From contig JBMFKS010000002.1 of the NCBI GenBank assembly GCA_049972045.1, positions 11,511-75,510 on the forward strand: a stretch of 64,000 nucleotides of DNA. The letters are read 5' to 3'. A program made the translations under genes and the position numbers. Numbering within the stretch: position 1 is the first letter of the stretch; each line of letters begins with the position of its first letter. Below, in pieces: positions 6,371 to 61,830 of this stretch. The notes beneath the pieces are model-generated. The model saw only the letters and a program-made list of their open reading frames with translations. It searched no databases and was not told where the DNA came from. The DNA comes from Anaerolineae bacterium (GTDB taxonomy: Bacteria; Chloroflexota; Anaerolineae; B4-G1; DUEL01).

Positions 6371-6443
6371 TGGCGACGGAGGGATTCGAACCCCCAACCA
6401 AGGGCTTATGAGTCCCCTGCTCTACCTTTGAGCTACGTCGCCC
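6371..6443 (-). tRNA. tRNA-Met (anticodon CAT); elongator type with a 1G:72C pair (or tRNA-Ile2 if lysidinylated)
   Basis: The reverse complement folds as a cloverleaf. The acceptor is GGCGACG/CGTCGCC+A, the D-arm GCTC..GAGC, the anticodon loop CTCATAA, and the T-arm GGGGG-TTCGAAT-CCCTC. CCA is not encoded. Confidence 0.85.
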
Positions 6444-6478: not shown

Positions 6479-6691
6479 GCCCGCGTCTGAGGTTCGGACA
6501 TCCGTTGGGACACGGGTTCGGACTCGCTTTTTGCGTCGACCGGAAGGGGGCGAGATCTCGGCCCCGAGCCCCGAGGGGCCAGTAGGACAAGGCAGAGCCT
6601 TGTCCTTCCCCGCGAAAACGCCGGGCCTGGCTTGCCTATGTCGGCTTATCTCCCAAATAATTTTTTCAAAGTTCATTCCGTCCGGGCGATC

Positions 6692-7483
6692 TCACGGGTG
6701 TTCACCCAGAAACTCCAGCACCAGGCGATTGAACGCCACCGGCTGGTCGGTCGGCGTGGCATGGCCGGAGCAGGGAATGACGACCAGACGGGCACCGGGG
6801 ATGCCAGCCGCCAGTTCCTCCTTGGCCCGCAGAGGAACCACTGGATCCTCCCGGCCCGCCACGACCAGGGTGGGGGCCCGGATGCGCCCCAGGTCCCGGC
6901 GGCCATCGTAGCGGGCCGCTGCCATCATCGCCGCCCGATAAGCGGCAGGGTCATTAGCGCAGAGTCGGTGGTAGGCCACCTGCCGCAACCCTGCCTGGCC
7001 CGGTCGGGGGAAAAGTTCCTCCGCCTCCAGCCGGGCGTGGAGCGCCAGGTTCACCAGCAGGGCTCCAAAGCGGATCAGGGTCATCCGCCACTCTGCCCAT
7101 CCCTTCGGCCGCAGATAGGCGAAGGTATTGACCAGTACCAGGGAGCGGACCCTCTCCGGATGCCGAACTGCCAGTGCCTGCGCCACCGCGCCACCCAGGG
7201 AGAGTCCGACAATGTGGGCCGAATCCGTCCCCAAAGCCCTCAGGAATCCAGCGATGTCGTCGGCCATCTGGGGAACGGTGTAGGGGCCGGGAGGTTTGTC
7301 GCTCCGGCCGTGGCCGCGCAGGTCCGGCATCAGGACCCGGTACCGCTGGCCCAGGGCCGGCGCCTGCAGCAGGGACCAGTCCTCCGCGCAGGAGCCCAGA
7401 CCGTGGATCAACACCACCGCCGGCCCGTACCCCTGGGCCAGATAGTGCAGCCGCAGACCGTTCACCTGGATGTAGGGCATGCG
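6692..7483 (-). CDS. alpha/beta-fold hydrolase
   Basis: 'HIVGLSLGG' (GxSxG nucleophile elbow) and 'VVLIHGLG' are typical. The start is probably the internal Met 'MPYIQVNGLRLHY' (7483), not 7537. Confidence 0.8.
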   Translation of the reverse strand, partial: RMPYIQVNGLRLHYLAQGYGPAVVLIHGLGSCAEDWSLLQAPALGQRYRVLMPDLRGHGRSDKPPGPYTVPQMADDIAGFLRALGTDSAHIVGLSLGGAVAQALAVRHPERVRSLVLVNTFAYLRPKGWAEWRMTLIRFGALLVNLALHARLEAEELFPRPGQAGLRQVAYHRLCANDPAAYRAAMMAAARYDGRRDLGRIRAPTLVVAGREDPVVPLRAKEELAAGIPGARLVVIPCSGHATPTDQPVAFNRLVLEFLGEHP

Positions 7484-8787: not shown

Positions 8788-9000
8788 GGATACAAGGGAT
8801 TAAGGGATGTGAAGCCCAAGGGGCGAGCAGTCAACAGGGGGTGGCAGGCCAGCGGGGGCGGATTGTAGCGCGGCAGGGCCCGCAGGCCCGGAAGGCCGCG
8901 CTACAATCCGCTAACGTAGATGTAGGTGAGCGCTCTCCAGCGGTTCATGCCTCCGGACTACTCAACAGGGCTGTTTTCATGATAGCCCAATTTCTCCAAA
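8788..9000 (-). promoter_or_regulatory. structured 5' leader of tyrS with a perfect 16-bp-stem hairpin (8858-8911); candidate T-box-like or translational control element
   Basis: Minus-strand candidate promoter TTGCAA-N16-TATCAT at ~8960-8990. The leader contains GGAGAGCGCUCACCUACAUCUACG (UAC Tyr codons) and the hairpin GCGGAUUGUAGCGCGG...CCGCGCUACAAUCCGC. Tandem UCCUUGU octamers sit before the SD. Confidence 0.4.
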
Positions 9001-12775: not shown

Positions 12776-13750
12776 ATGGGGGAACTGAAGGGCAAAGGCC
12801 TCTGGCTTTCTTTCTCCGCCGACCTGGACGGAGCGCTGGAGATGGCAGCGGCGGTCGGCGCGACCCACCTCATCTACCGGGTGGGGATGCGGGGCATGTT
12901 CTTCGTGGAAGCCGCCCGGTGGGTGGAGCGCCGTGCCCGTCAGGCCGGACTGGTGCCTCTGGCCTGGGTTGCCCTTTCCCTGGATGATCCCTTCGCCGAG
13001 GCCGCGCTGGTCGCCAAAGCCCGCCATGTCGGCTATGAGGGGGTGATTCTGGACCTGACCGACGCGGCGGCGGGGAAGACCGTTGCCGCCGCCACGCTGG
13101 GGCGGAAACTCATAGAGGTCGGCATAGAACCAGAGCGCCTGTTCTACGCCGCCCCGCCCGACATCTGGCGGCATCCGGAGATCCCCTACCGGGAGATGAA
13201 TGGGTTCTCCCGGGGCGGGTTTATGCCCTGGTGTGCCCTCACCACCCAGCGAACCCCCCGGACGGTGGTGGACAAGTGGGCCTATGGAGAACACGACCGC
13301 TGGCAGAAGGAGTGGGGCGATATGCCACCCCTCTATCCCATCCTGGCCGTCGGGAGGGAGGGGGAAGAGACCCAGCGGCCCGGTGTGCCCCAGTTCCTGG
13401 AGTGGGTCCAGGCGCTGGCGGCCCACAATCCGCCGTTTCTGAGCATTTACGGCATCGGTTCCCTGGACCGGGAACTGTGGCCGATTCTGGCATCGCTGGG
13501 GCCATCGGTGGCGCCACCTCCCGGGCGACCGATTTCTCCTGTGCCCTCTATCCCGGCCGAGGAAGTGCCTGCCCCGGCCACCGCGCAGTTTCATGTCGTG
13601 ACCGTCAACGATACCCTTTGGAGCATCTGCAAGCGGTACAATATTTCTAAGGCGCAGTTCTGGGAATGGAATGGCCACCTCTGGGATGAGCGAGGGCTAC
13701 CGCGAGACGAGGTCTACCTGGAAGAAGGGTGGCGAGTGCGGGTGGGGTGA
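12776..13750 (+). CDS. putative cell-wall glycoside hydrolase-like (GHL-type TIM-barrel) protein with a C-terminal LysM domain
   Basis: The C-terminus 'HVVTVNDTLWSICKRYNISKAQFWEWNGHL...' is LysM-like. The N-terminal ~230 aa is clearly paralogous to the N-terminus of the 28772..31399 product (shared PLYPIL, GG(F/L)MP and W.YG..(D/E)RW blocks). Confidence 0.65.
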   Translation: MGELKGKGLWLSFSADLDGALEMAAAVGATHLIYRVGMRGMFFVEAARWVERRARQAGLVPLAWVALSLDDPFAEAALVAKARHVGYEGVILDLTDAAAGKTVAAATLGRKLIEVGIEPERLFYAAPPDIWRHPEIPYREMNGFSRGGFMPWCALTTQRTPRTVVDKWAYGEHDRWQKEWGDMPPLYPILAVGREGEETQRPGVPQFLEWVQALAAHNPPFLSIYGIGSLDRELWPILASLGPSVAPPPGRPISPVPSIPAEEVPAPATAQFHVVTVNDTLWSICKRYNISKAQFWEWNGHLWDERGLPRDEVYLEEGWRVRVG

Positions 13751-13783: not shown

Positions 13784-14065
13784 ATGCAGGACGATGATTG
13801 GCTGGGGCGCGGGCTACGGCTGCCCGATTTTGAGGCGGAGGACGAGGTCCTGAGCGGAAGGCCGGCGGCAGTACCGGGAGAGGGCCGGAAAAAGCGCCCG
13901 GAGAGACGGCCCTCCGGGTCGTCCTCCGGAGGACTGGCGGGGCTCATCGGGACGCTCTCCCCCTTCCAGCGCTTCGTGCTGGCGCTGCTGCTGTTTCTGA
14001 ACGTCGCGCTTCTGGGCTGTATGTGCCTGGTGATGACCGGGCGGATTGTGCCCTTTTCCCCCTGA
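13784..14065 (+). CDS. small hypothetical protein with a C-terminal transmembrane anchor
   Basis: SD GGAGGG precedes the ATG. The C-terminus is 'FQRFVLALLLFLNVALLGCMCLVMTG'. The N-terminus is acidic and disordered. Confidence 0.35.
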   Translation: MQDDDWLGRGLRLPDFEAEDEVLSGRPAAVPGEGRKKRPERRPSGSSSGGLAGLIGTLSPFQRFVLALLLFLNVALLGCMCLVMTGRIVPFSP

Positions 14066-14070
14066 GATTG

Positions 14071-14234
14071 AGAGCTTGTCTGAAAAGTCACCGGATTCTG
14101 TCATTGCGAGGAGGCCGCAGGCCGACGAAGCAATCTCCTGGCCGTGGTAGAGATTGCTTCGCTCCTTCGGGGCTCGCAATGACATTCCCACGATACAAGT
14201 CATAGCAGGGCTTGCCATTTTTAAGACAAGCTCT
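14071..14234. repeat. ~165-bp element with three nested inverted repeats in a convergent intergenic region
   Basis: Outer IR agagcttgtctgaaaa / ttttaagacaagctct (16 bp, 1 mismatch). Middle IR tgtcattgcgag / ctcgcaatgaca (12/12, 14099-14110 and 14173-14184). Inner IR cgaagcaatctc / gagattgcttcg (12/12, 14126-14137 and 14150-14161). Confidence 0.7.
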
Positions 14235-14274
14235 GAAGGGAGCGATATTTCTTCTCTGGGGGCGATGGCCCCCC

Positions 14275-15399
14275 TCAACCGGCTGTGCCCTTCGGCACCG
14301 ACGTCTTCTCCAGTTCGGCCGCCAGATGAGCCACTGCCCGCGCCAGAGGGGAGTCCGGGGCGCTCAGCGCCAGGGGTTTGCCCTGGGCTAACGCCCGTGC
14401 CTGGGACGGGTCAAAAGGAACGATCCCGGAGATGGGATGCTTAAGGACCCGCTGGAGGGCATCCACCGGTGGCATCGGCTCCGGCCCCGCCTGGTTCAGG
14501 ATCAGCCGGACCTTGAAAGCATAGGGCTTTAAGACCTGAAGAGTCCCCACAGTGGTCTGGAGCGTTGGGGGGTCGGCGGCCGTCACCAGGAGGATCGCAT
14601 CCGCGCGCTCCAGCACGGCCATCACTCCTTCTGTGAGCACCGCGGGAAGGTCCGCCACCACGTACAGGAAACTCTCCCTCAGCGCGGCCAGGACTGCCCG
14701 GATCATTTCCGGGGATAACCCTCCCCCCACGACGGGGACGAAAGGTGAAGCGAGCAGATGGACGCCGGAGGGATGGGTCAGAAGATAATTCCGGATGGTT
14801 GCTGAGCCGGGCCCAGGGGTCAGGAGGGCCAGAGCAGACCAGTTGGGGTCAGGCCGGAGCCCCAACTGAAGCGCGTCGTGCCCGGAAGAAGGGGAGAGGT
14901 CCACCAGGCAGACCTGATTCGGCGAGGAGCGGGCCAGGGTGATGGCCAGATTGACAGCCAGCGTGGTCGTTCCCACCCCTCCGCGCAGGCTCAATACAGC
15001 CATCGTCCCTCCCGCTGCGCGGCGGACCACCTTGCGGGTCAGCAGGCGGTTGACCCGCTCCAGGAGTTCCGCCATGGTGACCGGCTTGGCGATGTACTCG
15101 TCGGCCCCGGCTGCCAGGGCGGTCTCCCGGTCCACCGGCTGACCGCGGGCCGTGAGGATAATGATGGGGATCTGGGCAGTGGCCGGGTTTTGCCGTAACT
15201 GGCGACAGACCTCGTAGCCGTTCATCCCCGGCATCATCACATCTATGATGGCCAGGTCCGGTGGGTTCGCGCGGGCTTTTGCCAGACCGTCCTCCCCTTC
15301 GGCGCTCAGCATCACTTCATGCCCGCCCCGCTCCTCCAGCAGCATCCGGATCATCTGGAGCAGGTCGGCATTGTCGTCCACGACCAGAATACGGGCCAT
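14275..15399 (-). CDS. response-regulator receiver domain fused to a CpaE/TadZ-like (ParA/MinD superfamily) ATPase domain with a degenerate Walker A
   Basis: REC: 'ILVVDDNADLL...DLAIIDVMMPGMNGYEV...IIILTA...ADEYIAKP'. ATPase-like: 'LSLRGGVGTTTLAVNLA' (canonical KGGVGKTT has lost both lysines). The start is at 15399, with SD ggagg upstream. Confidence 0.8.
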   Translation of the reverse strand: MARILVVDDNADLLQMIRMLLEERGGHEVMLSAEGEDGLAKARANPPDLAIIDVMMPGMNGYEVCRQLRQNPATAQIPIIILTARGQPVDRETALAAGADEYIAKPVTMAELLERVNRLLTRKVVRRAAGGTMAVLSLRGGVGTTTLAVNLAITLARSSPNQVCLVDLSPSSGHDALQLGLRPDPNWSALALLTPGPGSATIRNYLLTHPSGVHLLASPFVPVVGGGLSPEMIRAVLAALRESFLYVVADLPAVLTEGVMAVLERADAILLVTAADPPTLQTTVGTLQVLKPYAFKVRLILNQAGPEPMPPVDALQRVLKHPISGIVPFDPSQARALAQGKPLALSAPDSPLARAVAHLAAELEKTSVPKGTAG

Positions 15400-15507
15400 G
15401 TCCGTCCTCCTCCCCCACAACGCTCATGGCGATATTATACCCCTAATTTGGCGATTTCACAATGGGCAAGGCGTGTCCCCACCGTGTCGGAGGAAGGGAA
15501 TAGTCCA

Positions 15508-15583
15508 CCAGTAGGGCAACTGCGAGCAGTTGCCCTACTGGAGGGCGCAGAGACCCACAAAAGGGCTGTTGACAAACCAGTAG
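15508..15583. repeat. copy A of a ~75-bp repeated element containing a perfect 16-bp-arm palindrome and a TTGACA box
   Basis: ccagtagggcaactgc-gag-gcagttgccctactgg followed by agggcgcagagacccacaaaagggctgttgacaaacc. It is ~90% identical to the reverse complement of 56803..56875. Confidence 0.8.
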
Positions 15584-15737: not shown

Positions 15738-16850
15738 TTGAACTCCGCCATCCACTGGCGGGATGAGGTCCTGCCCCGCCACTTGGCCCGTCTGGCGGTC
15801 TCCTGGTGGCAGTGGAGCAGTGACCGACAGGCGTTCTGGCCGTTGCTGAGCCGCACCTCGGCGCATCTCGCGCTGGTGATCGCGGCCTGTCTGGCCCTCC
15901 TGCTGAGCACCATCCGTATCCCCGTCTGGGCCGCCCGTTCGCTGACCCCCGCGGCAGACCTCTTCGCTTCCCAGAACAATATCAGTGCCACTCAGGCCAC
16001 ACCGGCCGGAATGACTGCCCGCAGGGGGCATGCTCTCAAGCCGGACCCCTGGGCTCCGATCGCCCTGCGGGCCGATCCCCACACGGAAATCCCCAAACGC
16101 CCGCGCCTGGGCGTGATCACCTACACAGTCCAGTTAGGGGATACCGTGCAGGCGATCGCAGCCCAGTTTGACCTGCAACCCACCACCATTATGTGGGCAA
16201 ACCCCGCCGTGGAGGATGCCCCAGACCTGCTGCGCATCGGGCAGGAACTGGTCATTCTGCCCGTGGACGGAGTGTACCACACCGTCAAAGAGGGCGAGAC
16301 GCTGGAATCCATCGCCAAAAAATACAAGGTGGAAGTGGAAGCGATCACTTCCTGCCCGTATAACTCCCTCCAGCCCCCCGATTTCGCCATTGAGCCGGGG
16401 ATGAAACTGATCATCCCCGGCGGTGAGAAGCCCTGGGTGCCGAAAGTGGTGACCAGTTACACTGGGCCCATCCCCGAAGGGGCCCGGGGGACCGGCCTGT
16501 TCCAGTGGCCGGTGCTGGGCTATATCACCCAGGGATACTGGTACGGCCACCGGGCCATAGACATCGGCGTCCCGGTGGGCACGGCGGTCCACGCGGCCGA
16601 CGGCGGCTTCGTCAGTTTTGCCGGATGGACCGATGTCGGCTACGGTTACCTGATCGTTATTGACCACGCCAACGGTTTCGCCACCTACTACGCTCACCTG
16701 AGCAACTTCTACGTGATGGCCGGGCAGAAAGTGGAACGGGGCCAGGTCATCGGCGCCACCGGCAACACCGGCTGGTCCACCGGCCCGCATCTCCACTTTG
16801 AGATCCGCTACCTCGGCGTACCCCAGAACCCCCGCGCGTATCTCCCGTAG
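15738..16850 (+). CDS. M23-family (LytM-type) metallopeptidase with two LysM domains and an N-terminal membrane anchor
   Basis: LysM x2 ('YTVQLGDTVQAIAAQF...', 'YHTVKEGETLESIAKKY'). M23: 'HRAIDIG..GTAVHAADGG...GYGYLIVIDHANGFATYYAHL...GATGNTGWSTGPHLHFEIR'. The longest ORF starts at 15603, but the TTG at 15738 (after GGGGCGGG) fits the promoter/UTR better. Confidence 0.85.
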   Translation: MNSAIHWRDEVLPRHLARLAVSWWQWSSDRQAFWPLLSRTSAHLALVIAACLALLLSTIRIPVWAARSLTPAADLFASQNNISATQATPAGMTARRGHALKPDPWAPIALRADPHTEIPKRPRLGVITYTVQLGDTVQAIAAQFDLQPTTIMWANPAVEDAPDLLRIGQELVILPVDGVYHTVKEGETLESIAKKYKVEVEAITSCPYNSLQPPDFAIEPGMKLIIPGGEKPWVPKVVTSYTGPIPEGARGTGLFQWPVLGYITQGYWYGHRAIDIGVPVGTAVHAADGGFVSFAGWTDVGYGYLIVIDHANGFATYYAHLSNFYVMAGQKVERGQVIGATGNTGWSTGPHLHFEIRYLGVPQNPRAYLP

Positions 16851-19131: not shown

Positions 19132-19220
19132 GCTCTCTCAACGGCAGAGACGATAGGAGTTCCCGTGGTGAGGGAATACGCCCCGCCGGCAGGCCGCCGG
19201 TTGGAGTGCAGGCCGCCAGC

Positions 19221-19352
19221 GCCGCTGCTCGTGTTGCGGCACGGAACGAAGTGAAGTGCCGCCGCTGCTGCTGCTCGTAGTGCGGCACGAAACGGAGTGA
19301 AGTGCCGCCGCTGCCGCTGCTCGTAGTGCGGCACGAAACGGAGTGAAGTGCC
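19221..19352. repeat. three tandem 40/46/46-bp repeats, each containing a hairpin (CGGCAC-N13-GTGCCG), between the YHS gene and copA
   Basis: Unit: gccgctgc(tgc)tgctcgtagtgcggcacgaaacggagtgaagtgcc. Units 2 and 3 differ by 1 nt. Confidence 0.85.
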
Positions 19353-19540
19353 GCTTCCGGCGCCACTCCGCTTCGCCCTCGGCCCAAGGCCTCGGCGCGA
19401 GCGAACCTCCTCGACCTGAGGCCGTCGCCCCGATGGGGCTCGCCCCGAGGGGCCGACGCCCGGCGCGACGCGCCCAGGGAGGCCGATTTCCCATCGGCGA
19501 AGTTTCTGCATCCTTCGGGTCTCCGGGATAAAGGAGCACT

Positions 19541-22003
19541 ATGGCTGAACAACGTATTTCCATCCCCGTTCGGGGCATGACCTGCGCTTCGTGCGTCGCC
19601 CATGTGGAGGGGGCCCTGCGCGGCGTGGATGGCGTGGAGGAAGTCGCCGTGAACCTGGCCACCGAGCGGGCCACCCTCCGCTTTGACCCCCGGGCCGTCC
19701 GCATGGCCGACCTGGTCCGCGCTGTGCAGGAGACCGGCTACGAGGTCCCCACCGAGACGGTGGTCCTCCCCATCGGCGGGATGACCTGCGCGGCTTGCGT
19801 CGCCCACGTGGAGGAAGCCCTGCGCGGGCTCCCGGGTGTCGTCTCCGCCTCGGTCAACCTGGCCACGGAGAAGGCGACGGTCACCTTCATCCCCGGCGTG
19901 GTGGGCATCCCCGACTTCCAGCGGGCGGTGGCGGAGGCCGGGTACGAAGTGCTGGAGGCCCCTGCCGAAAGGGCGGTGGCCGAAGAGGACGAGGCCGAGC
20001 GCAAAATGCGTGAGAGCCGCTTCCGCATGCGTGTCGCCTGGGCGTTCACCGTCCCCATCATCCTCTGGATGCTCCCCGAGATGCTCTGGGGGGTGATGTG
20101 GCCCAGCCACCTGGTCTTCCATCTGGGGATGATCCTCCTGGCCGCGCCCGTCCTCTTCTGGGTGGGCCGCCGGACCTACCGCAGTGGCCTCTCCGCCGCC
20201 CTGCACGGTTTCGCCAACATGGACACCCTCATCACCCTGGGCACGGGCGTCTCCTTCCTCACCGGCCCGGCGTCCTTCTTCTTCCCCGTCGCCAACTACG
20301 CCGGGGTGGCGGCGATGATTATGGCTTTCCACCTCACCGGCCGGTACGTGGAAGAGACGGCGAAAGGCCGCGCCTCCCAGGCCATCCGCAAACTCCTGGA
20401 ACTGGGCGCCAAAACGGCGCGCGTCGTCCGGGACGGGATAGAGGTGGAAGTGCCCATTGAGGAAGTCCAGGTGGGGGACCTGATGGTCGTCCGTCCGGGC
20501 GAGAAAATCCCCACCGACGGCGTCGTCCTGGAGGGGGAAAGCGCTGTGGACGAATCTATGGCCACCGGCGAGTCCATGCCCGTGGAGAAGCGCCCCGGCG
20601 ACGAGGTCATCGGCGCCACCGTCAACCAGGACGGACTCCTGAAGGTGCGGGCCACCCGGGTGGGGCGGGACACCTTCCTGGCCCAGGTCATCCGGCTGGT
20701 GGAGGAGGCGCAGGGCTCCAAAGTCCCCATCCAGGCCTTCGCCGACCGGGTAACCGCCGTCTTTGTGCCGATCGTGCTGGGGATCGCGCTTCTCACTCTG
20801 GTAGCCTGGCTGGCGTTTCCGGATTTGATGCGGACCCTGGTGACGGCCGGCTCCTTTTTGCCCTGGGTGAATCCGAACCTGGGGACCGTCACCTTGGCCA
20901 TCATCTCCACCGTCGCCGTCCTGGTGATTGCCTGTCCCTGCGCGCTGGGCCTGGCGACGCCCACCGCGCTCATGGTGGGAAGCGCCCGGGGCGCCGAGCG
21001 CGGCATCCTCATCCGCTCCGGCGAGGCCATCCAGACCCTCAAGGATGTGCGGGTGGTGGTTTTTGATAAGACGGGGACCCTCACGAAAGGGAAGCCCGCC
21101 GTGACCGACATCGTACCGGCCGAAGGGATGAGCGAAGAGGAACTCCTCTACCTGGCCGGGTCGGCGGAACGGGGGTCAGAGCATCCCCTGGGGCGGGCGG
21201 TGGTGGAGGGGGCCCTCGCCCGGGGCCTGGCGCTGGCGGACCCCGCCGAATTCCAGGCCCTGCGCGGCCGCGGGGTCGCGGCAACGGTGGACGGGAAACG
21301 GGTCCTGGTGGGCTCTCGGCGGCTCATGGAGGAGGCGGGGCTCCCCCCGGCCCTGCTGGAGGAGACCCTGCGCCGGCTGGAGGCGGAGGCAAAGACGGCC
21401 ATTCTGGTGGCGGTGGACGGCCGCCTGGGCGGAGTCCTGGCGGTGGCCGACCCGCTGAAGGAGGACGCCGTCGCTGCCGTGGAGGCCTTGCACCGGCTTG
21501 GCCTGCGGACGGCGATGCTCACCGGCGATAACCGCCGGACCGCGGAGGCTATCGCCCGGCGGGTGGGCATAGACGAAGTGCGGGCCGAGGTCCTCCCTGA
21601 AGGCAAAGTGGCGGAGGTCCGCCGCCTGCAGGAGCAGTACGGTCGGGTAGCCTTTGTGGGCGACGGCATCAACGACGCTCCCGCTCTCAAGGGAGCGGAC
21701 GTGGGTATCGCCATCGGGACGGGCACCGACATCGCCATTGAGGCCGGGGACGTGACCCTGGTGCGCGGGGAACTTTCGGGCGTCGTGGAGGCGATCCACC
21801 TTAGCCGGGCCACCTTCCGCAAAATCCGCCAGAACCTTTTCTGGGCCTTTTTCTATAACGTGGTGATGATCCCCCTGGCAGGGATGGGGTGGATGCATCC
21901 CGTGCTGGCGGAGATCGCCATGGCGACTTCTTCGGTAACGGTGGTGACCAACGCCAACACCCTGCGGCGGGTGGACATCCGGATGAATCCTGATTCGGGG
22001 TAA
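19541..22003 (+). CDS. copA: copper-translocating P1B-type ATPase with two N-terminal HMA domains
   Basis: [12 protein letters not shown] and [12 protein letters not shown] (HMA x2), [18 protein letters not shown]. Confidence 0.95.
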
Positions 22004-35620: not shown

Positions 35621-35963
35621 ATTCACAACCTGTGGTAAAATGCCCGCTCGTCAGACGGACGGCAGCCAGAGCCCCTGCCGTGCACGAAAGGACTCGTGAA
35701 GGCGGAAGGAGGCCATCGGTTGGCACAGATGGCCTTCTTCGCGGAATCTGAGAGATCGTCTGAAAATCTACCCCAAAGGACACGAAGGACACAAAGCCCT
35801 CGGCCCGAAGGGAAATGCCCGAAGGCGGCGTCGCCCCGAGCCCCTCGGCGCGTGGCGCGGCGTGGCCGAGGGGGCTTCTCGGCCCGGGGGGATGGAAGCA
35901 CACCAGTCTTCGTGTTCTTGGTGTCCTTCGTGGTGTTCAGACAATCTCTGAGGGAGAGAAACC

Positions 35964-56805: not shown

Positions 56806-56875
56806 GGTGCCCTAGTGGTTTGTCAACAGCACTTTTGTGGGTCTTTGCGCCCTCCAGTAGGGCAACTGTGAGCAG
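56803..56875. repeat. copy B (inverted orientation) of the ~75-bp palindrome-containing repeat
   Basis: Its reverse complement is cgtaggcaactgctcacagttgccctactggagggcgcaaagacccacaaaagtgctgttgacaaaccactagg, ~90% identical to 15508..15583. Confidence 0.8.
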
Positions 56876-57006
56876 TTGCCTACGCCTTGTGGCCTGCATG
56901 GGCCCCTGGCCGCGTCAGCAATTCGGACCCATAAGTATAAACTTGACTAACCACTCGTCGCTGATTGCGGGGAGGATAGAACCGCTGCTTCCTTCGGAGT
57001 AATCTG

Positions 57007-61719: not shown

Positions 61720-61733
61720 GAAACAGGACTTAC

Positions 61734-61830
61734 GCAGTTCACGAGAAATGTAGCGCAGGCTGTTAGCCTGCAAATACCGGCCTGGCGGCCTGCGCTACAT
61801 AAGCAAGTGCGTAAGTCCTGTAAGAAATTC
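61734..61830. repeat. 97-nt triple-nested perfect hairpin in the rpoA-rplQ spacer
   Basis: Outer caggacttacgca/tgcgtaagtcctg (13/13). Middle tgtagcgcaggc/gcctgcgctaca (12/12). Inner gcaggc-tgtta-gcctgc. It shares a TGTAGCGC...GCGCTACA core with the tyrS-leader hairpin. Confidence 0.8.

Follow-up and report, generated by a model that had tools for sequence, protein, structure and literature searches.

A strain-variable repeat element, probably a TGTC-tagged REP dimer in an inverted-repeat shell, between convergent genes of an Anaerolineae bacterium

Introduction

CGTC-tagged REPs were described by Di Nocera, De Gregorio & Rocco (2013, BMC Genomics 14:522; PMC3733652). According to that paper, the published form is a plain 8- to 9-bp stem with a 4- to 5-nt loop, although other loop lengths and bulged units exist. 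The tag has the variants TGTC and CCTC, and in the stems of CGTC/TGTC-tagged REPs the first pairs are A-T; a 3-nt tail (CCA) comes after the stem. Most of the repeats form HH dimers, which are located 3' of ORFs that are convergent or unidirectional and in some cases are embedded in a longer palindrome. The repeats reach tens to thousands of copies per genome; Novosphingobium aromaticivorans is among the species listed, with CGTC-2.

Two other systems share features with these repeats. Ssn nucleases bind and cleave CGTC-tagged NTS hairpins solely in the form of single-stranded DNA (ssDNA), SsnA cutting about 3 nt upstream of its hairpin, and the NTS loop is dispensable and extendable (PMC11893778; Nat Commun 2025, 16:2388). 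REPINs, for their part, are excised asymmetrically and insert into other REPINs (PMC3116915).

Here we analyze a nested palindrome from an Anaerolineae bacterium, situated in a stretch of 64,000 nucleotides (contig JBMFKS010000002.1) that we refer to as the window. With a probability of roughly 70%, we consider it to be a recent, strain-variable, non-autonomous insert of 163 bp, consisting of a head-to-head TGTC(CGTC)-tagged REP dimer enclosed in an inverted-repeat shell.

Results

The element lies between two convergent genes (Table 1), as an earlier note on this DNA had stated in placing it between a small TM-anchored ORF (+) and a REC-CpaE-like gene (-); the stop codons are 4 and 42 nt away. 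The 93-aa protein matched no Pfam family and is syntenic and 71 to 83% identical in three Thermoflexales relatives (L254, L256, and L257). The other protein matched Pfam Response_reg (1.6e-29) plus CbiA/ParA/AAA_31, and the closest of its 629 homologues are labeled Thermoflexales or Anaerolineae.

Table 1. Features of the element and its surroundings (window positions; the slash marks a junction)
Feature	Position	Strand	Remarks
93-aa protein gene, C-terminal membrane segment	13784-14065	+	stop codon 4 nt before the insertion
Shell left arm (outer inverted repeat I1)	14068-14086	.	TTGAGAGCTTGTCTGAAAA, 17/19 complementary to right arm
Flanking T kept left of both copies	14069	.	maybe a 1-bp ambiguity or duplication
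Mobile unit, 163-bp insertion	14070-14232	.	GAGAGCTTGTCT...AGACAAGCT; block missing in L003, present in L124
Half-unit A	14099-14137	+	matches family consensus; fold computed
Middle inverted-repeat arms	14099-14110 / 14173-14184		12/12 complementary
Inner inverted-repeat arms	14126-14137 / 14150-14161		12/12 complementary
Central spacer (loop) between half-units	14138-14149	.	CTGGCCGTGGTA
Half-unit B	14150-14184	-	TGTC-ATTGCGAG-CCCCGAAGGAG-CGAAGCAAT-CTC
Sole variable site inside the element	14163		T in window, L001, L002; C in L004, L124 copy
Side hairpin, then CCATTTTT	14196-14222	+	CAAGTC-ATAGCAG-GGCTTG (14196-14214); terminator-like
Shell right arm (outer inverted repeat I1)	14219-14237	.	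TTTTAAGACAAGCTCTGAA; last 5 nt are flank
Conserved flank CTGA (TCAG on - strand)	14233-14236	-	retained in empty site
Response-regulator receiver + CpaE/MinD-type ATPase gene	14275-15399	-	stop codon 42 nt beyond the insertion
Predicted circle junction, - strand ends of the element joined			...AAGCTCTC/AGCTTGTCT...

A repeat search bore out the three concentric inverted repeats that had been described (16 bp with one mismatch, 12 bp, and 12 bp), and extended the 16-nt outer repeat to arms of 19 nt that are 89% complementary. Folding both strands as RNA, a check proposed by the note, indicated a real structure, far beyond chance: for positions 14060 to 14245 the folding energy was -79.1 kcal/mol (z = -4.66) on the + strand, which none of 200 shuffles equaled, and -77.5 kcal/mol (z = -5.17) on the - strand, and the locus ranked second among the 1,879 segments of a GC-corrected sliding-window fold of the 64-kb window. 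Compared with a simple terminator, the element is indeed the more elaborate structure. The assertion that it has no U-tracts was incorrect, since T5 is found at 14218-22 (+) and T4 at 14087-14084 (-). By the criteria for intrinsic terminators, the internal hairpin at 14196-14214 with its T5 qualifies on the + strand, while the element as a whole does not. The element is asymmetric in that its left half holds nothing that corresponds to this side hairpin.

The core (14099-14184) is composed of half-units A and B placed head to head, with the TGTC tags outside. In half-unit A, the TGTC tag precedes the ATTGC side of the stem; an internal loop of purines (GAGGA/GACGAA) and an apical mini-hairpin (GGCC-GCA-GGCC) come next, and the GCAAT side of the stem and a CTC tail complete the unit. 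In half-unit B, a C at the variable site restores a perfect CCCC-GAA-GGGG apical hairpin and makes the DNA fold more stable (-8.1 kcal/mol, against -4.2 kcal/mol with T). On inspection, the internal loop did not qualify as a k-turn, the bulge being 1 nt instead of 3 and on the wrong side.

The window does contain several nested palindromes built from recurring modules, as had been proposed. The two singled out as members of a similar family (61734-61830 and 8858-8911) share the nested architecture, but self-BLAST revealed no sequence similarity to the element, and their hairpins are GTAG-headed, unlike the TGTC-headed element. The nested hairpin at 61723-61821 is not polymorphic across six strain contigs. 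Within the 64-kb window, only one dimer was found, and about 60 kb of sequence from relatives held none.

Comparison with a near-identical strain and with an outgroup showed the element to be an insertion. The strain contig L003 lacks exactly 14070-14232, although 14069-14231 is equally possible owing to a 1-nt ambiguity, and its flanks are 99.8 to 99.9% identical (alignment and BLAST); contigs L001, L002, and L004 carry the full element. In the relative L256, whose neighboring protein is 92% identical, the site is uninterrupted (GTTCTGAAGGGGG). That the difference arose instead by deletion in L003, for example through hairpin-stimulated replication slippage, with no insertion in the lineage of the window, seems to us very improbable. 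Long palindromes are deletion prone and there is 1 nt of microhomology (T) at the junction, but the outgroup site is uninterrupted, the missing stretch has, to the base, the same bounds as the stretch in common with a second copy, on contig L124, and a single nt of homology would not suffice for slippage to arrive at these bounds by chance.

This second, essentially identical copy, at an unrelated locus, was shown by alignment: positions 1463-1630 of L124 are 99.4% identical over 168 nt, have different flanks, and match the L004 allele at every position. The contig L124, 2.8 kb long, is binned to an archaeal MAG of mixed GC content and may be chimeric. The empty L003 allele reads CCCTTCAG/AATCTC on the - strand and GAGATT/CTGAAGG on the + strand, while the junctions of the L124 copy read CATCTCAG/element/AGAGGTG. 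At the left junction, ...GAGAT-T/GAGAGC in the window corresponds to ...CACCTC-T/GAGAGC in the reverse complement of L124. Both copies thus read TCAG^element^A on the - strand, with the same ends and the same one-sided flank. Neither the filled/empty comparison nor the L124 copy disclosed a target-site duplication beyond a possible 1 bp (T). From these two contexts (n = 2), the target of insertion is presumed to be 5'-TCAG^A-3'.

Four further contigs end or begin in or beside the element: L006 stops at 14069, L005 (k=31) at 14098, and L007 (k=55 assumed) at 14123, and L247 begins at 14207. All four break points fit a multi-copy block, 14069-14236, that branches the assembly graph.

Searches for additional copies of the composite were negative. 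It was absent from about 60 kb of relatives' sequence and from the viral and metagenome collections searched. Among genome contigs, the pattern AGCTTGTCT-N125-155-AGACAAGCT, which was estimated to be too weak, gave 116 loci, all of them chance matches by BLAST; the degenerate end pattern AGCTTGTCTKAAAARTSRCMRGMY gave one chance match in metagenome contigs and none in viral contigs. Protein searches with six translations of the element matched P0001/L124 alone, a concatenated five-frame query returned nothing useful, and a literature search for raw DNA and spurious-peptide strings of the element brought up nothing relevant. Against plasmids, BLAST of the 96-nt core gave no match, while the canonical 37-mer did match.

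Some of these data bear on the possibility that the element is a classical MITE, with a DDE transposase recognizing the 13- to 19-bp terminal inverted repeats and the REP dimer as passive cargo. The terminal inverted repeats (AGAGCTTGTCTKAAAA, 17/19 complementary), the size of 163 bp, the intergenic position, and the location of the second copy beside an IS1595-family transposase pseudogene would all be in line with a MITE. We nevertheless regard this as unlikely: target-site duplication is absent beyond the possible 1 bp, the junctions are asymmetric to the inverted repeat (3 extra nt at one end, while flanking bases complete the other arm), similarity does not run from the element into the neighboring IS, and scans of viral and metagenome sequences gave no parent IS with these ends.

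The core, unlike the composite, turned out to be widespread. The half-unit consensus is YGTC-ATTGCGAG-(variable mini-hairpin)-CGAAGCAAT-CYM, and the pattern CATTGCGAG-N5-35-CGAAGCAATC had at least 185 matches in at least 120 viral contigs. Among the matches listed, positions outside the pattern are conserved as well: G (98%) and T (97%) at -2/-1 and Y (94%) at -3, and a tail of C, then Y (97%, +1), then C/A (85%). Spacers of 5 nt were CGNAG in 61 of 79 cases, and longer spacers were self-complementary, 25 of 75 being better than all 50 shuffles, again among the matches listed. The motif is also present in plasmids of Alpha- and Gammaproteobacteria and Nostocales, including pNL2 of N. aromaticivorans. 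Head-to-head dimers occupy unannotated plasmid spacers of Methylosinus, Novosphingobium, and other genera, those of Methylosinus and Novosphingobium having CCA as the tail, and the fetched viral and plasmid loci together contained 55 such dimers of 64 to 154 bp. These matches show that the core hairpin, as judged from its motif, belongs to a repeat family which crosses phyla and abounds in viral contigs too.

In viral contigs, 22 single half-units lay on the same strand as the gene and 22 on the opposite strand, so that there was no strand bias by gene calls that are crude, a result that speaks neither for nor against an RNA role. L182 and L185 each have half-units in inverted orientation at a distance of about 600 bp, with no ORF in the interval, and clustering the ORFs of 120 viral loci in search of an associated enzyme found just phage structural proteins to recur. 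Two GIY-YIG homing-endonuclease-like ORFs in viral loci were considered as the associated enzyme and set aside, the link being unconvincing.

In its tag (TGTC at 14099-14102 on the + strand and 14184-14181 on the - strand), its stem (ATTGC...GCAAT in both half-units, with an A-T/T-A opening), its tail (CTC here and C-Y-M in the family, against CCA in the 2013 paper), and its dimeric arrangement (tags outward at 14099 and 14184), the core agrees with the description of CGTC-tagged REPs. Its location just downstream of convergent ORFs, the inclusion of the dimer in a longer palindrome, and the occurrence of the half-unit motif in N. aromaticivorans, a species listed for CGTC in that paper, are further likenesses. 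On this basis the core fits the CGTC-tagged REP superfamily, a placement made by the description of tag, stem, tail, and dimer and not by the four published consensuses; the paper's supplements yielded no match (PMC3733652).

There are also differences. The half-unit stem has 5 Watson-Crick pairs, a tandem G.A pair with a bulge, a 2- to 4-bp apical stem, and a 3-nt loop, whereas the published stem is plain; the commonest form in the family has a 5-nt center, CGNAG, next to the 4- to 5-nt loop of the published CGTC REPs. The host belongs to the Chloroflexota, a phylum that the 2013 paper lists for GTAG REPs and not for CGTC (PMC3733652), and the unit that moved here is the dimer plus its shell. 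We also compared the shell with the palindrome around the CGTC-1 dimers of Halothiobacillus neapolitanus and rejected a match, the left arm being marginal (p about 0.01 to 0.02) and the right arm not significant.

As in REPINs (Bertels & Rainey 2011), a pair of inverted REP-like hairpins may fold each by itself or together into a single long hairpin; genomes differ in whether they carry the element, its ends do not share the symmetry of the repeat, and such elements insert into or beside one another. Unlike REPINs, which have a GTAG head and a cognate RAYT, the element has a TGTC head, and the moved block of 163 bp extends 29 and 48 nt beyond the doublet, so that the doublet alone is not the mobile unit.

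With the NTS/SRM hairpins, the half-unit shares the flanks that give orientation (5' HGTCWY; 3' RNCYNB, with C right after the stem), and as in NTS the stem opens with ATT...AAT and the apical loop tolerates variation or extension, which experiments have shown for NTS. Inside the stem the sequences differ (GCGAG...CGAAGC here versus CCCGCG...CGCGGG). The SRM pattern HGTCWYN(0-2)YYVSBRHN(0-5)WNVSBRGN(0-2)RNCYNB matched nowhere in the window and fitted 0 of the 185 family members listed, whereas the NTS positive control matched. Ssn, moreover, is a demonstrated nuclease and not a transposase (PMC11893778), and the mobile unit reaches 29 and 48 nt beyond the two tags; because SsnA cuts about 3 nt from its hairpin, the core hairpins fail to explain the junctions. 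No ssn-like GIY-YIG small ORF was found in the window or the strain loci (phmmer with an approximate YhbQ query and regex, both weak tests), and for IS200 TnpA and E. coli RAYT a tblastn search of the window had no hit with an E value below 0.8, likewise a weak test with approximate queries.

The lack of target duplication and a hairpin-dependent chemistry would be shared with IS200/IS605 elements and PATEs. A conserved tetranucleotide, TCAG, lies on one side only, 5' of the left end of the minus strand (n = 2 copies), and may correspond to the one-sided target motif of IS200/IS605 elements; the hairpin 14196-14214 begins 19 nt inside that end, the same distance at which the hairpin of IS608 is placed. 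Unlike in IS200/IS605 elements, no matching hairpin is found near the other end of the same strand, and the perfect-palindrome design is atypical. BIMEs, ERIC, and RIME-type repeats are comparable in being modular, intergenic, and strain-variable and in combining smaller palindromic units with linkers, but they have no sequence relationship to the element and were defined in enterobacteria and rhizobia.

Discussion

Because a second copy is found elsewhere and the core belongs to a cross-phylum family of hairpin repeats, the evidence points to strain-variable mobile repeat DNA of the REP/MITE kind and not to a conserved RNA gene or regulatory site. The note had suggested protein-binding palindromes, RNase III or processing sites, or small structured RNAs. 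Neither a conserved RNA of this sort nor an RNase III site nor a palindrome selected at this locus for binding a host protein found support, since L003 and the three Thermoflexales relatives do not have the element. The note had also named a lack of conservation or compensatory changes in relatives as grounds for refutation, and the relatives' spacers proved completely different and devoid of the element.

A small structured RNA gene or cis-regulatory RNA could account for the folding z-scores (-4.7 and -5.2) and for apical hairpins that vary in sequence across the family while keeping their pairing. Such an RNA is nonetheless highly unlikely in our judgment. The covariance search against Rfam advised by the note gave nothing at gathering score and, at E <= 10, a chance match of 12.7 bits as its best hit; no promoter-like site was found at the element; and the element is dispensable between strains and absent in relatives. 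In addition, the commonest apical loop, cGNAg, is known as an ultra-stable DNA mini-hairpin, reportedly a classic one going back to Hirao in 1994 and Yoshizawa in 1997. The related NTS hairpin is not recognized as RNA by its enzyme (PMC11893778).

A host-selected bidirectional terminator, or a hairpin stabilizing the mRNAs of the two convergent genes, appears improbable too, even though the element is situated 4 and 42 nt from the stop codons, folds very stably on both strands, and has an internal hairpin with T5 on the + strand that was flagged as terminator-like. Moreover, the spacer of L257 holds a canonical terminator at the corresponding place, and REPs are reported to adjoin 3' ends, their transcription being presumed (PMC3733652). 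Against this stand the near-identical strain that has both genes but no element, the identical element at an unrelated locus, and the orthologous spacers of L254, L256, and L257, which are unrelated to one another and share neither sequence nor structure with the element. Any terminator effect would therefore be incidental and not the reason for the element, which may act incidentally as a transcript 3' hairpin.

We thus favor the non-autonomous REP-dimer insert, whose shell is a 13- to 19-bp inverted repeat that also carries the small hairpin and T5. Such an element would work as single-stranded DNA once the duplex is unwound. Each unwound strand would then present one correctly oriented tagged hairpin, made up of a stem of 5 bp (ATTGC/GCAAT), tandem G.A pairs, and a mini-hairpin of the cGNAg type. 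Hairpin-specific enzymes that act on ssDNA and are encoded elsewhere in the genome would use the tagged hairpins as substrates; they could be Y1/HUH transposases (IS200/IS605-RAYT kind) or GIY-YIG nucleases of the Ssn type. The composite as a whole would be excised and integrated without duplication beside a short target sequence, the spacer of the convergent genes presumably being a site that tolerates such insertions. Both transcripts would thereby incidentally receive a very stable hairpin at the 3' end, on the + strand as hairpin plus T5.

It is a bolder and rather unlikely proposition that the element actively moves without duplication into TCAG^A by means of an enzyme outside the known transposase families. 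Such an enzyme could be an Ssn-type GIY-YIG single-strand nuclease acting together with a ligation or repair step; another option would be integration into the loops of small target hairpins.

The CGTC-tagged repeats were catalogued in 2013 without a dedicated transposase, and that paper left it open whether copies are still being formed (PMC3733652); the 2025 study dealt with NTS as a single-strand nuclease substrate and did not cover the multiplication of repeats (PMC11893778). To these, the present locus adds a filled/empty allele pair in near-identical strains, an empty outgroup, and a second identical copy, which together define the ends, the presumed TCAG^A target, and the lack of duplication to the base. 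It also extends the range of the motif to Chloroflexota, cyanobacterial plasmids, and many viral contigs. On the practical side, such elements fragment short-read assemblies and create spurious ORFs, such as P0001. If the element does move actively into TCAG^A, the orphan CGTC/TGTC-tagged repeats, possibly spread by phages and gene-transfer-agent-like particles, in which the motif abounds, would constitute a distinct cross-phylum class of mobile DNA.

Structure of the element

A repeat search of the window recovered the three concentric inverted repeats that an earlier note had described at this locus (see the table). As RNA, the element region gave fold energies of -79.1 (+ strand) and -77.5 (- strand) kcal/mol; this folding of both strands, proposed in the note, gave z-scores of -4.7 and -5.2, respectively, with no shuffle equaling either value. 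A GC-corrected sliding-window fold, run across the whole window, placed the element second of 1,879 positions by structure and the locus near 61.7 kb, also singled out by the note, third. GC content is 49 to 59% inside the element versus 64 to 73% in the flanking genes. The note's statement that U-tracts are absent did not hold, since T-runs exist, e.g., CCATTTTT after a small hairpin at 14196-14214 on the + strand, an arrangement flagged as terminator-like. Rfam returned no family matching the element, either at the gathering score or at E <= 10.

Coordinates and dimensions of the features (window positions unless a contig is named)
Feature	Position	Detail	Basis
Outer inverted-repeat arms	14068-14086 / 14219-14237	19 nt, 89%	repeat search
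Middle inverted-repeat arms	14099-14110 / 14173-14184	12/12	repeat search
Inner inverted-repeat arms	14126-14137 / 14150-14161	12/12	repeat search
Convergent spacer, relative L254		93 bp	
Convergent spacer, relative L257		108 bp, includes textbook terminator	
Convergent spacer, relative L256	L256 11126-11493	368 bp, occupied by other GTAG-headed hairpins	
Strain contig L005 (Logan, k = 31)	ends at 14098		
Contig L247, partner of L005	begins at 14207		
Strain contig L007 (SPAdes-style name; k = 55 assumed)	ends at 14123		
Strain contig L006	ends at 14069		
Consensus fold, part 1		5-bp stem ATTGC/GCAAT	folding and inspection
Consensus fold, part 2		tandem G.A pairs, one bulged A	folding and inspection
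Consensus fold, part 3		G-C pair	folding and inspection
Consensus fold, part 4		apical mini-hairpin; in the element, GGCC-GCA-GGCC on one strand, CC(C/T)C-GAA-GGGG on the other	folding and inspection

Filled and empty sites

The organism belongs to a lineage of Anaerolineae/Thermoflexales MAGs, and seven near-identical strain contigs were gathered through an exact match to the LysM protein encoded at 12776-13750. Contigs L001, L002 and L004 carry the element. In L003 (GCA_049720595.1), exactly 163 bp, corresponding to window 14070-14232, are missing, leaving the junction ...CCCCCTGAGATT|CTGAAGGGAG... between flanks that are 99.8 to 99.9% identical to the window. We then compared three Thermoflexales relatives (L254, L256 and L257), whose neighboring CpaE-like protein is 89 to 92% identical. 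All three retain the two convergent genes, with spacers wholly dissimilar to that of the window; this comparison, called for by the earlier note, found the element in none of them. Since the insertion point is unbroken in L256 (GTTCTGAAGGGGG), the empty site is the ancestral state, and the element is an insertion that varies among strains. It starts 4 nt past the stop codon of the small upstream ORF, which is a real conserved gene. In L256, GTAG-headed hairpins in tandem (TGTAGGTCGGATTGCCAATCCGAC...) and one module of the CACAAAGGACACGA type have enlarged the spacer, and the convergent spacer is therefore a hotspot of palindromic insertions.

A second copy and the ends of the element

A protein-space search, with the sole open reading frame of the element as the query, gave a single match, a spurious 69-aa "protein" (P0001) on contig L124. 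The element copy on this contig is 99.4% identical over 168 nt and lies in flanks unrelated to the window, with an AT-rich ORF on one side and a frameshifted IS1595-family transposase on the other. The sole difference from the window is at position 14163, the base that also separates L004 from the window, so the L124 copy is identical to one allele of the window locus. In L124 (1-2846), a 449-aa ORF of 35 to 40% GC, for which Pfam gave no match, lies between GC-rich DNA, the element and the frameshifted IS1595/ISXO2 transposase. The contig is labeled as a Methanomassiliicoccales MAG; it is probably a misbinned member of the Anaerolineae population, or else a mobile-DNA hotspot.

The minus-strand form of the two copies is TCAG|AGCTTGTCTT...CAGACAAGCTCTC|A; on that strand, an empty site reads TCAG|A. 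No target-site duplication was found on comparing filled with empty sites and the L124 junctions, the ambiguity being at most 1 bp. The junctions are asymmetric relative to the inverted repeat, and the conserved flank completes part of one arm. By inspection, the L124 insertion point falls in a 6-bp palindrome, inside its 3-nt loop (CATCTC-AG^A-GAGGTG), and the window target falls within a weaker CCCT...AGGG palindrome.

Contig ends back these bounds independently. Assuming that unitigs terminate k-2 (or k-1) bases inside a shared block, and with k partly assumed, the ends of L005, L247 and L007 would put the block edges at 14069 and 14236. That block, T + 163 bp + CTGA, is common to the window and L124, and the end of L006 coincides with the point where filled and empty alleles diverge.

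The core hairpin and its relatives

The core (14099-14184) contains one copy per strand of TGTC-ATTGCGAG-spacer-CGAAGCAAT-CTC. Scanning viral contigs with the pattern CATTGCGAG-N5-35-CGAAGCAATC gave at least 185 matches on at least 120 contigs. Positions outside the pattern were nearly invariant among the matches listed (upstream Y 94%, G 98% and T 97%; downstream Y 97%), and the viral matches are therefore true relatives of the core half-unit. Among the same matches, 5-nt spacers were CGNAG in 61 of 79 cases, cGNAg being a classic ultra-stable DNA mini-hairpin, and longer spacers were mostly self-complementary (mean DNA fold, -5.4 versus -3.2 kcal/mol for shuffled sequences), 25 of 75 beating all 50 shuffles.

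At the loci listed, the motif was single in 127 instances and had an inverted partner within 75 nt in 58; a looser search of the retrieved loci found 55 head-to-head dimers of 64 to 154 bp. Among related phage contigs, some have the motif in their intergenic spacers and others lack it there. In phage-like contigs (L127, e.g., 7064-7093, L130, L141, L153, L161 and L175), single TGTC/CGTC half-units often lie directly 5' of a Shine-Dalgarno sequence and ATG; a Shine-Dalgarno sequence and start codon were within 45 nt for 28 of the 127 single half-units among the matches listed, versus 13 in a control window. Some phage-like contigs hold five or six copies on one strand.

A canonical 37-mer also matches unannotated plasmid spacers in Methylosinus, Methylocystis, Novosphingobium, Halomonas, Legionella, Calothrix, Tolypothrix, Aulosira and Trichormus. 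Full dimers (CGTCATTGCGAG...AAGCAATCCAG...CTGGATTGCTTCG...CTCGCAATGACG) occur in Methylosinus and N. aromaticivorans plasmids, the Methylosinus dimer lying between convergent genes. The motif had no match in unrelated bacterial loci totaling 0.84 Mb, and its distribution is sporadic.

CGTC-tagged REPs, defined by Di Nocera et al. in 2013, carry the tag CGTC, TGTC or CCTC, a stem opened by A-T pairs and a 3-nt tail; they are found mostly as head-to-head dimers and mostly in Alphaproteobacteria, 3' of convergent or unidirectional ORFs and at times nested inside longer palindromes, and "apparently lack a dedicated transposase" (PMC3733652). Matched by description, the half-unit of the element fits in tag, stem start, tail, dimer and location, while its stem/loop geometry is atypical. 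REPINs (REP doublets), asymmetric excision products and nested insertion were described by Bertels and Rainey in 2011 (PMC3116915). The CGTC-tagged hairpin NTS of Neisseria is bound and cut, as ssDNA only, by the 94-aa GIY-YIG nuclease SsnA; the three bases 5' of the stem and the C that follows it are decisive, and the loop tolerates replacement or extension (PMC11893778, 2025). The half-unit has the same flanks (HGTCWY...RNCYNB) and a freely varying loop but differs in the interior of the stem, and for this reason its family fails the published SRM pattern (0 of the 185 matches listed; the control matches).

Other palindromic modules in the window

The nested loci that the earlier note had grouped into a family share an architectural kind, but their modules differ. 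At 61723-61821, the rpoA-rplQ spacer, a shell (AGGACTTACGCA/TGCGTAAGTCCT) surrounds a GTAG-tagged REP dimer (TGTAGCGCAGGC...GCCTGCGCTACA). The shell arms also enclose unrelated cargo in two viral contigs (L249 1973-2071 and L250 2099-2200), and the dimer recurs at three viral loci on two contigs (L251-L253) and, repeated three times in tandem, in L256 (14779-14976). All six strain contigs examined have the nested palindrome, which is fixed in them. The hairpin at 8858-8911 has a 17-bp stem and separates the divergently oriented tyrS and AIRS-domain genes. It shows 93% conservation at the orthologous L254 site (16475-16544), where the neighboring protein is 89% identical; unlike the element, it appears fixed and may be functional. 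At 35781-35932, directly upstream of an apparent rpsL (S12), is a nested inverted repeat whose arms are CACGAAGGACACAAAG; this arm motif also appears in the spacer of L256, and in viral contig L146 it flanks a CGTC dimer. Tagged palindromic modules, mobile in some cases and fixed in others, thus form a mosaic in the genome.

Further repeats were seen. Adjoining a tRNA (6371-6442), a strain-variable block at 6546-6605 consists in the window and L002 of a GGGGGCGAGATCTCGGCCCC palindrome and a GTAG-headed hairpin (CCAGTAGGACAAGGCAGAGCCTTGTCC); L001 and L004 have another version, 34 bp shorter, and the block falls in N gaps in L003 and L006. Dispersed over two sites (15505-15583 and, on the - strand, 56812-56883; 91% identity), a repeat of about 70 bp comprises a GTAG-headed hairpin (CCAGTAGGGCAACTGC..GCAGTTGCCCTACTGG) and a conserved TTGACA-containing tail. 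In the 15.5-kb copy, TTGACA is followed after 17 nt by TGCTACAAT, and the repeat may therefore supply the LysM/M23 peptidase gene with an upstream promoter. At 19203-19354 and 19563-19950 are imperfect direct repeats, tandem or close together (about 60 nt, 85%, and about 184 nt, 68% identity), and these are the site of alternative alignments in strain contigs L001-L003.

Movement of the element

The data show that filled and empty sites coexist among strains, that a second copy has identical ends, that the conserved flank is one-sided with no duplication, and that the core belongs to a family. We propose that the element would be selfish DNA, processed as single-stranded hairpins by a candidate enzyme encoded elsewhere and integrated adjoining TCAG without duplication. 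Such integration is the signature of IS200/IS605/RAYT-type chemistry and is not known of any DDE family. RAYT, IS200 and GIY-YIG genes were not found within the 64-kb window by weak tests. At the TCAG-proximal end, 19 nt separate the terminus from a small hairpin, the same spacing as in IS608; this stays a lead only, because no partner hairpin was found at the opposite end. Distances of 29 and 48 nt separate the TGTC tags from the junctions outside them, and tag-adjacent cutting in the manner of SsnA is therefore insufficient by itself to account for these junctions. The recognition signals for movement must reside in the shell; the dimer may be cargo, or it may have inserted earlier as a nested unit.

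An effect on the host is plausible, with a hairpin at both mRNA 3' ends plus a hairpin and T5 on the + strand; since the element is dispensable, this effect would be incidental. The element is a well-explained real feature, a CGTC/TGTC-type composite of a known kind of repeat, and its main interest is that it has been caught mid-movement, with its ends and target defined.
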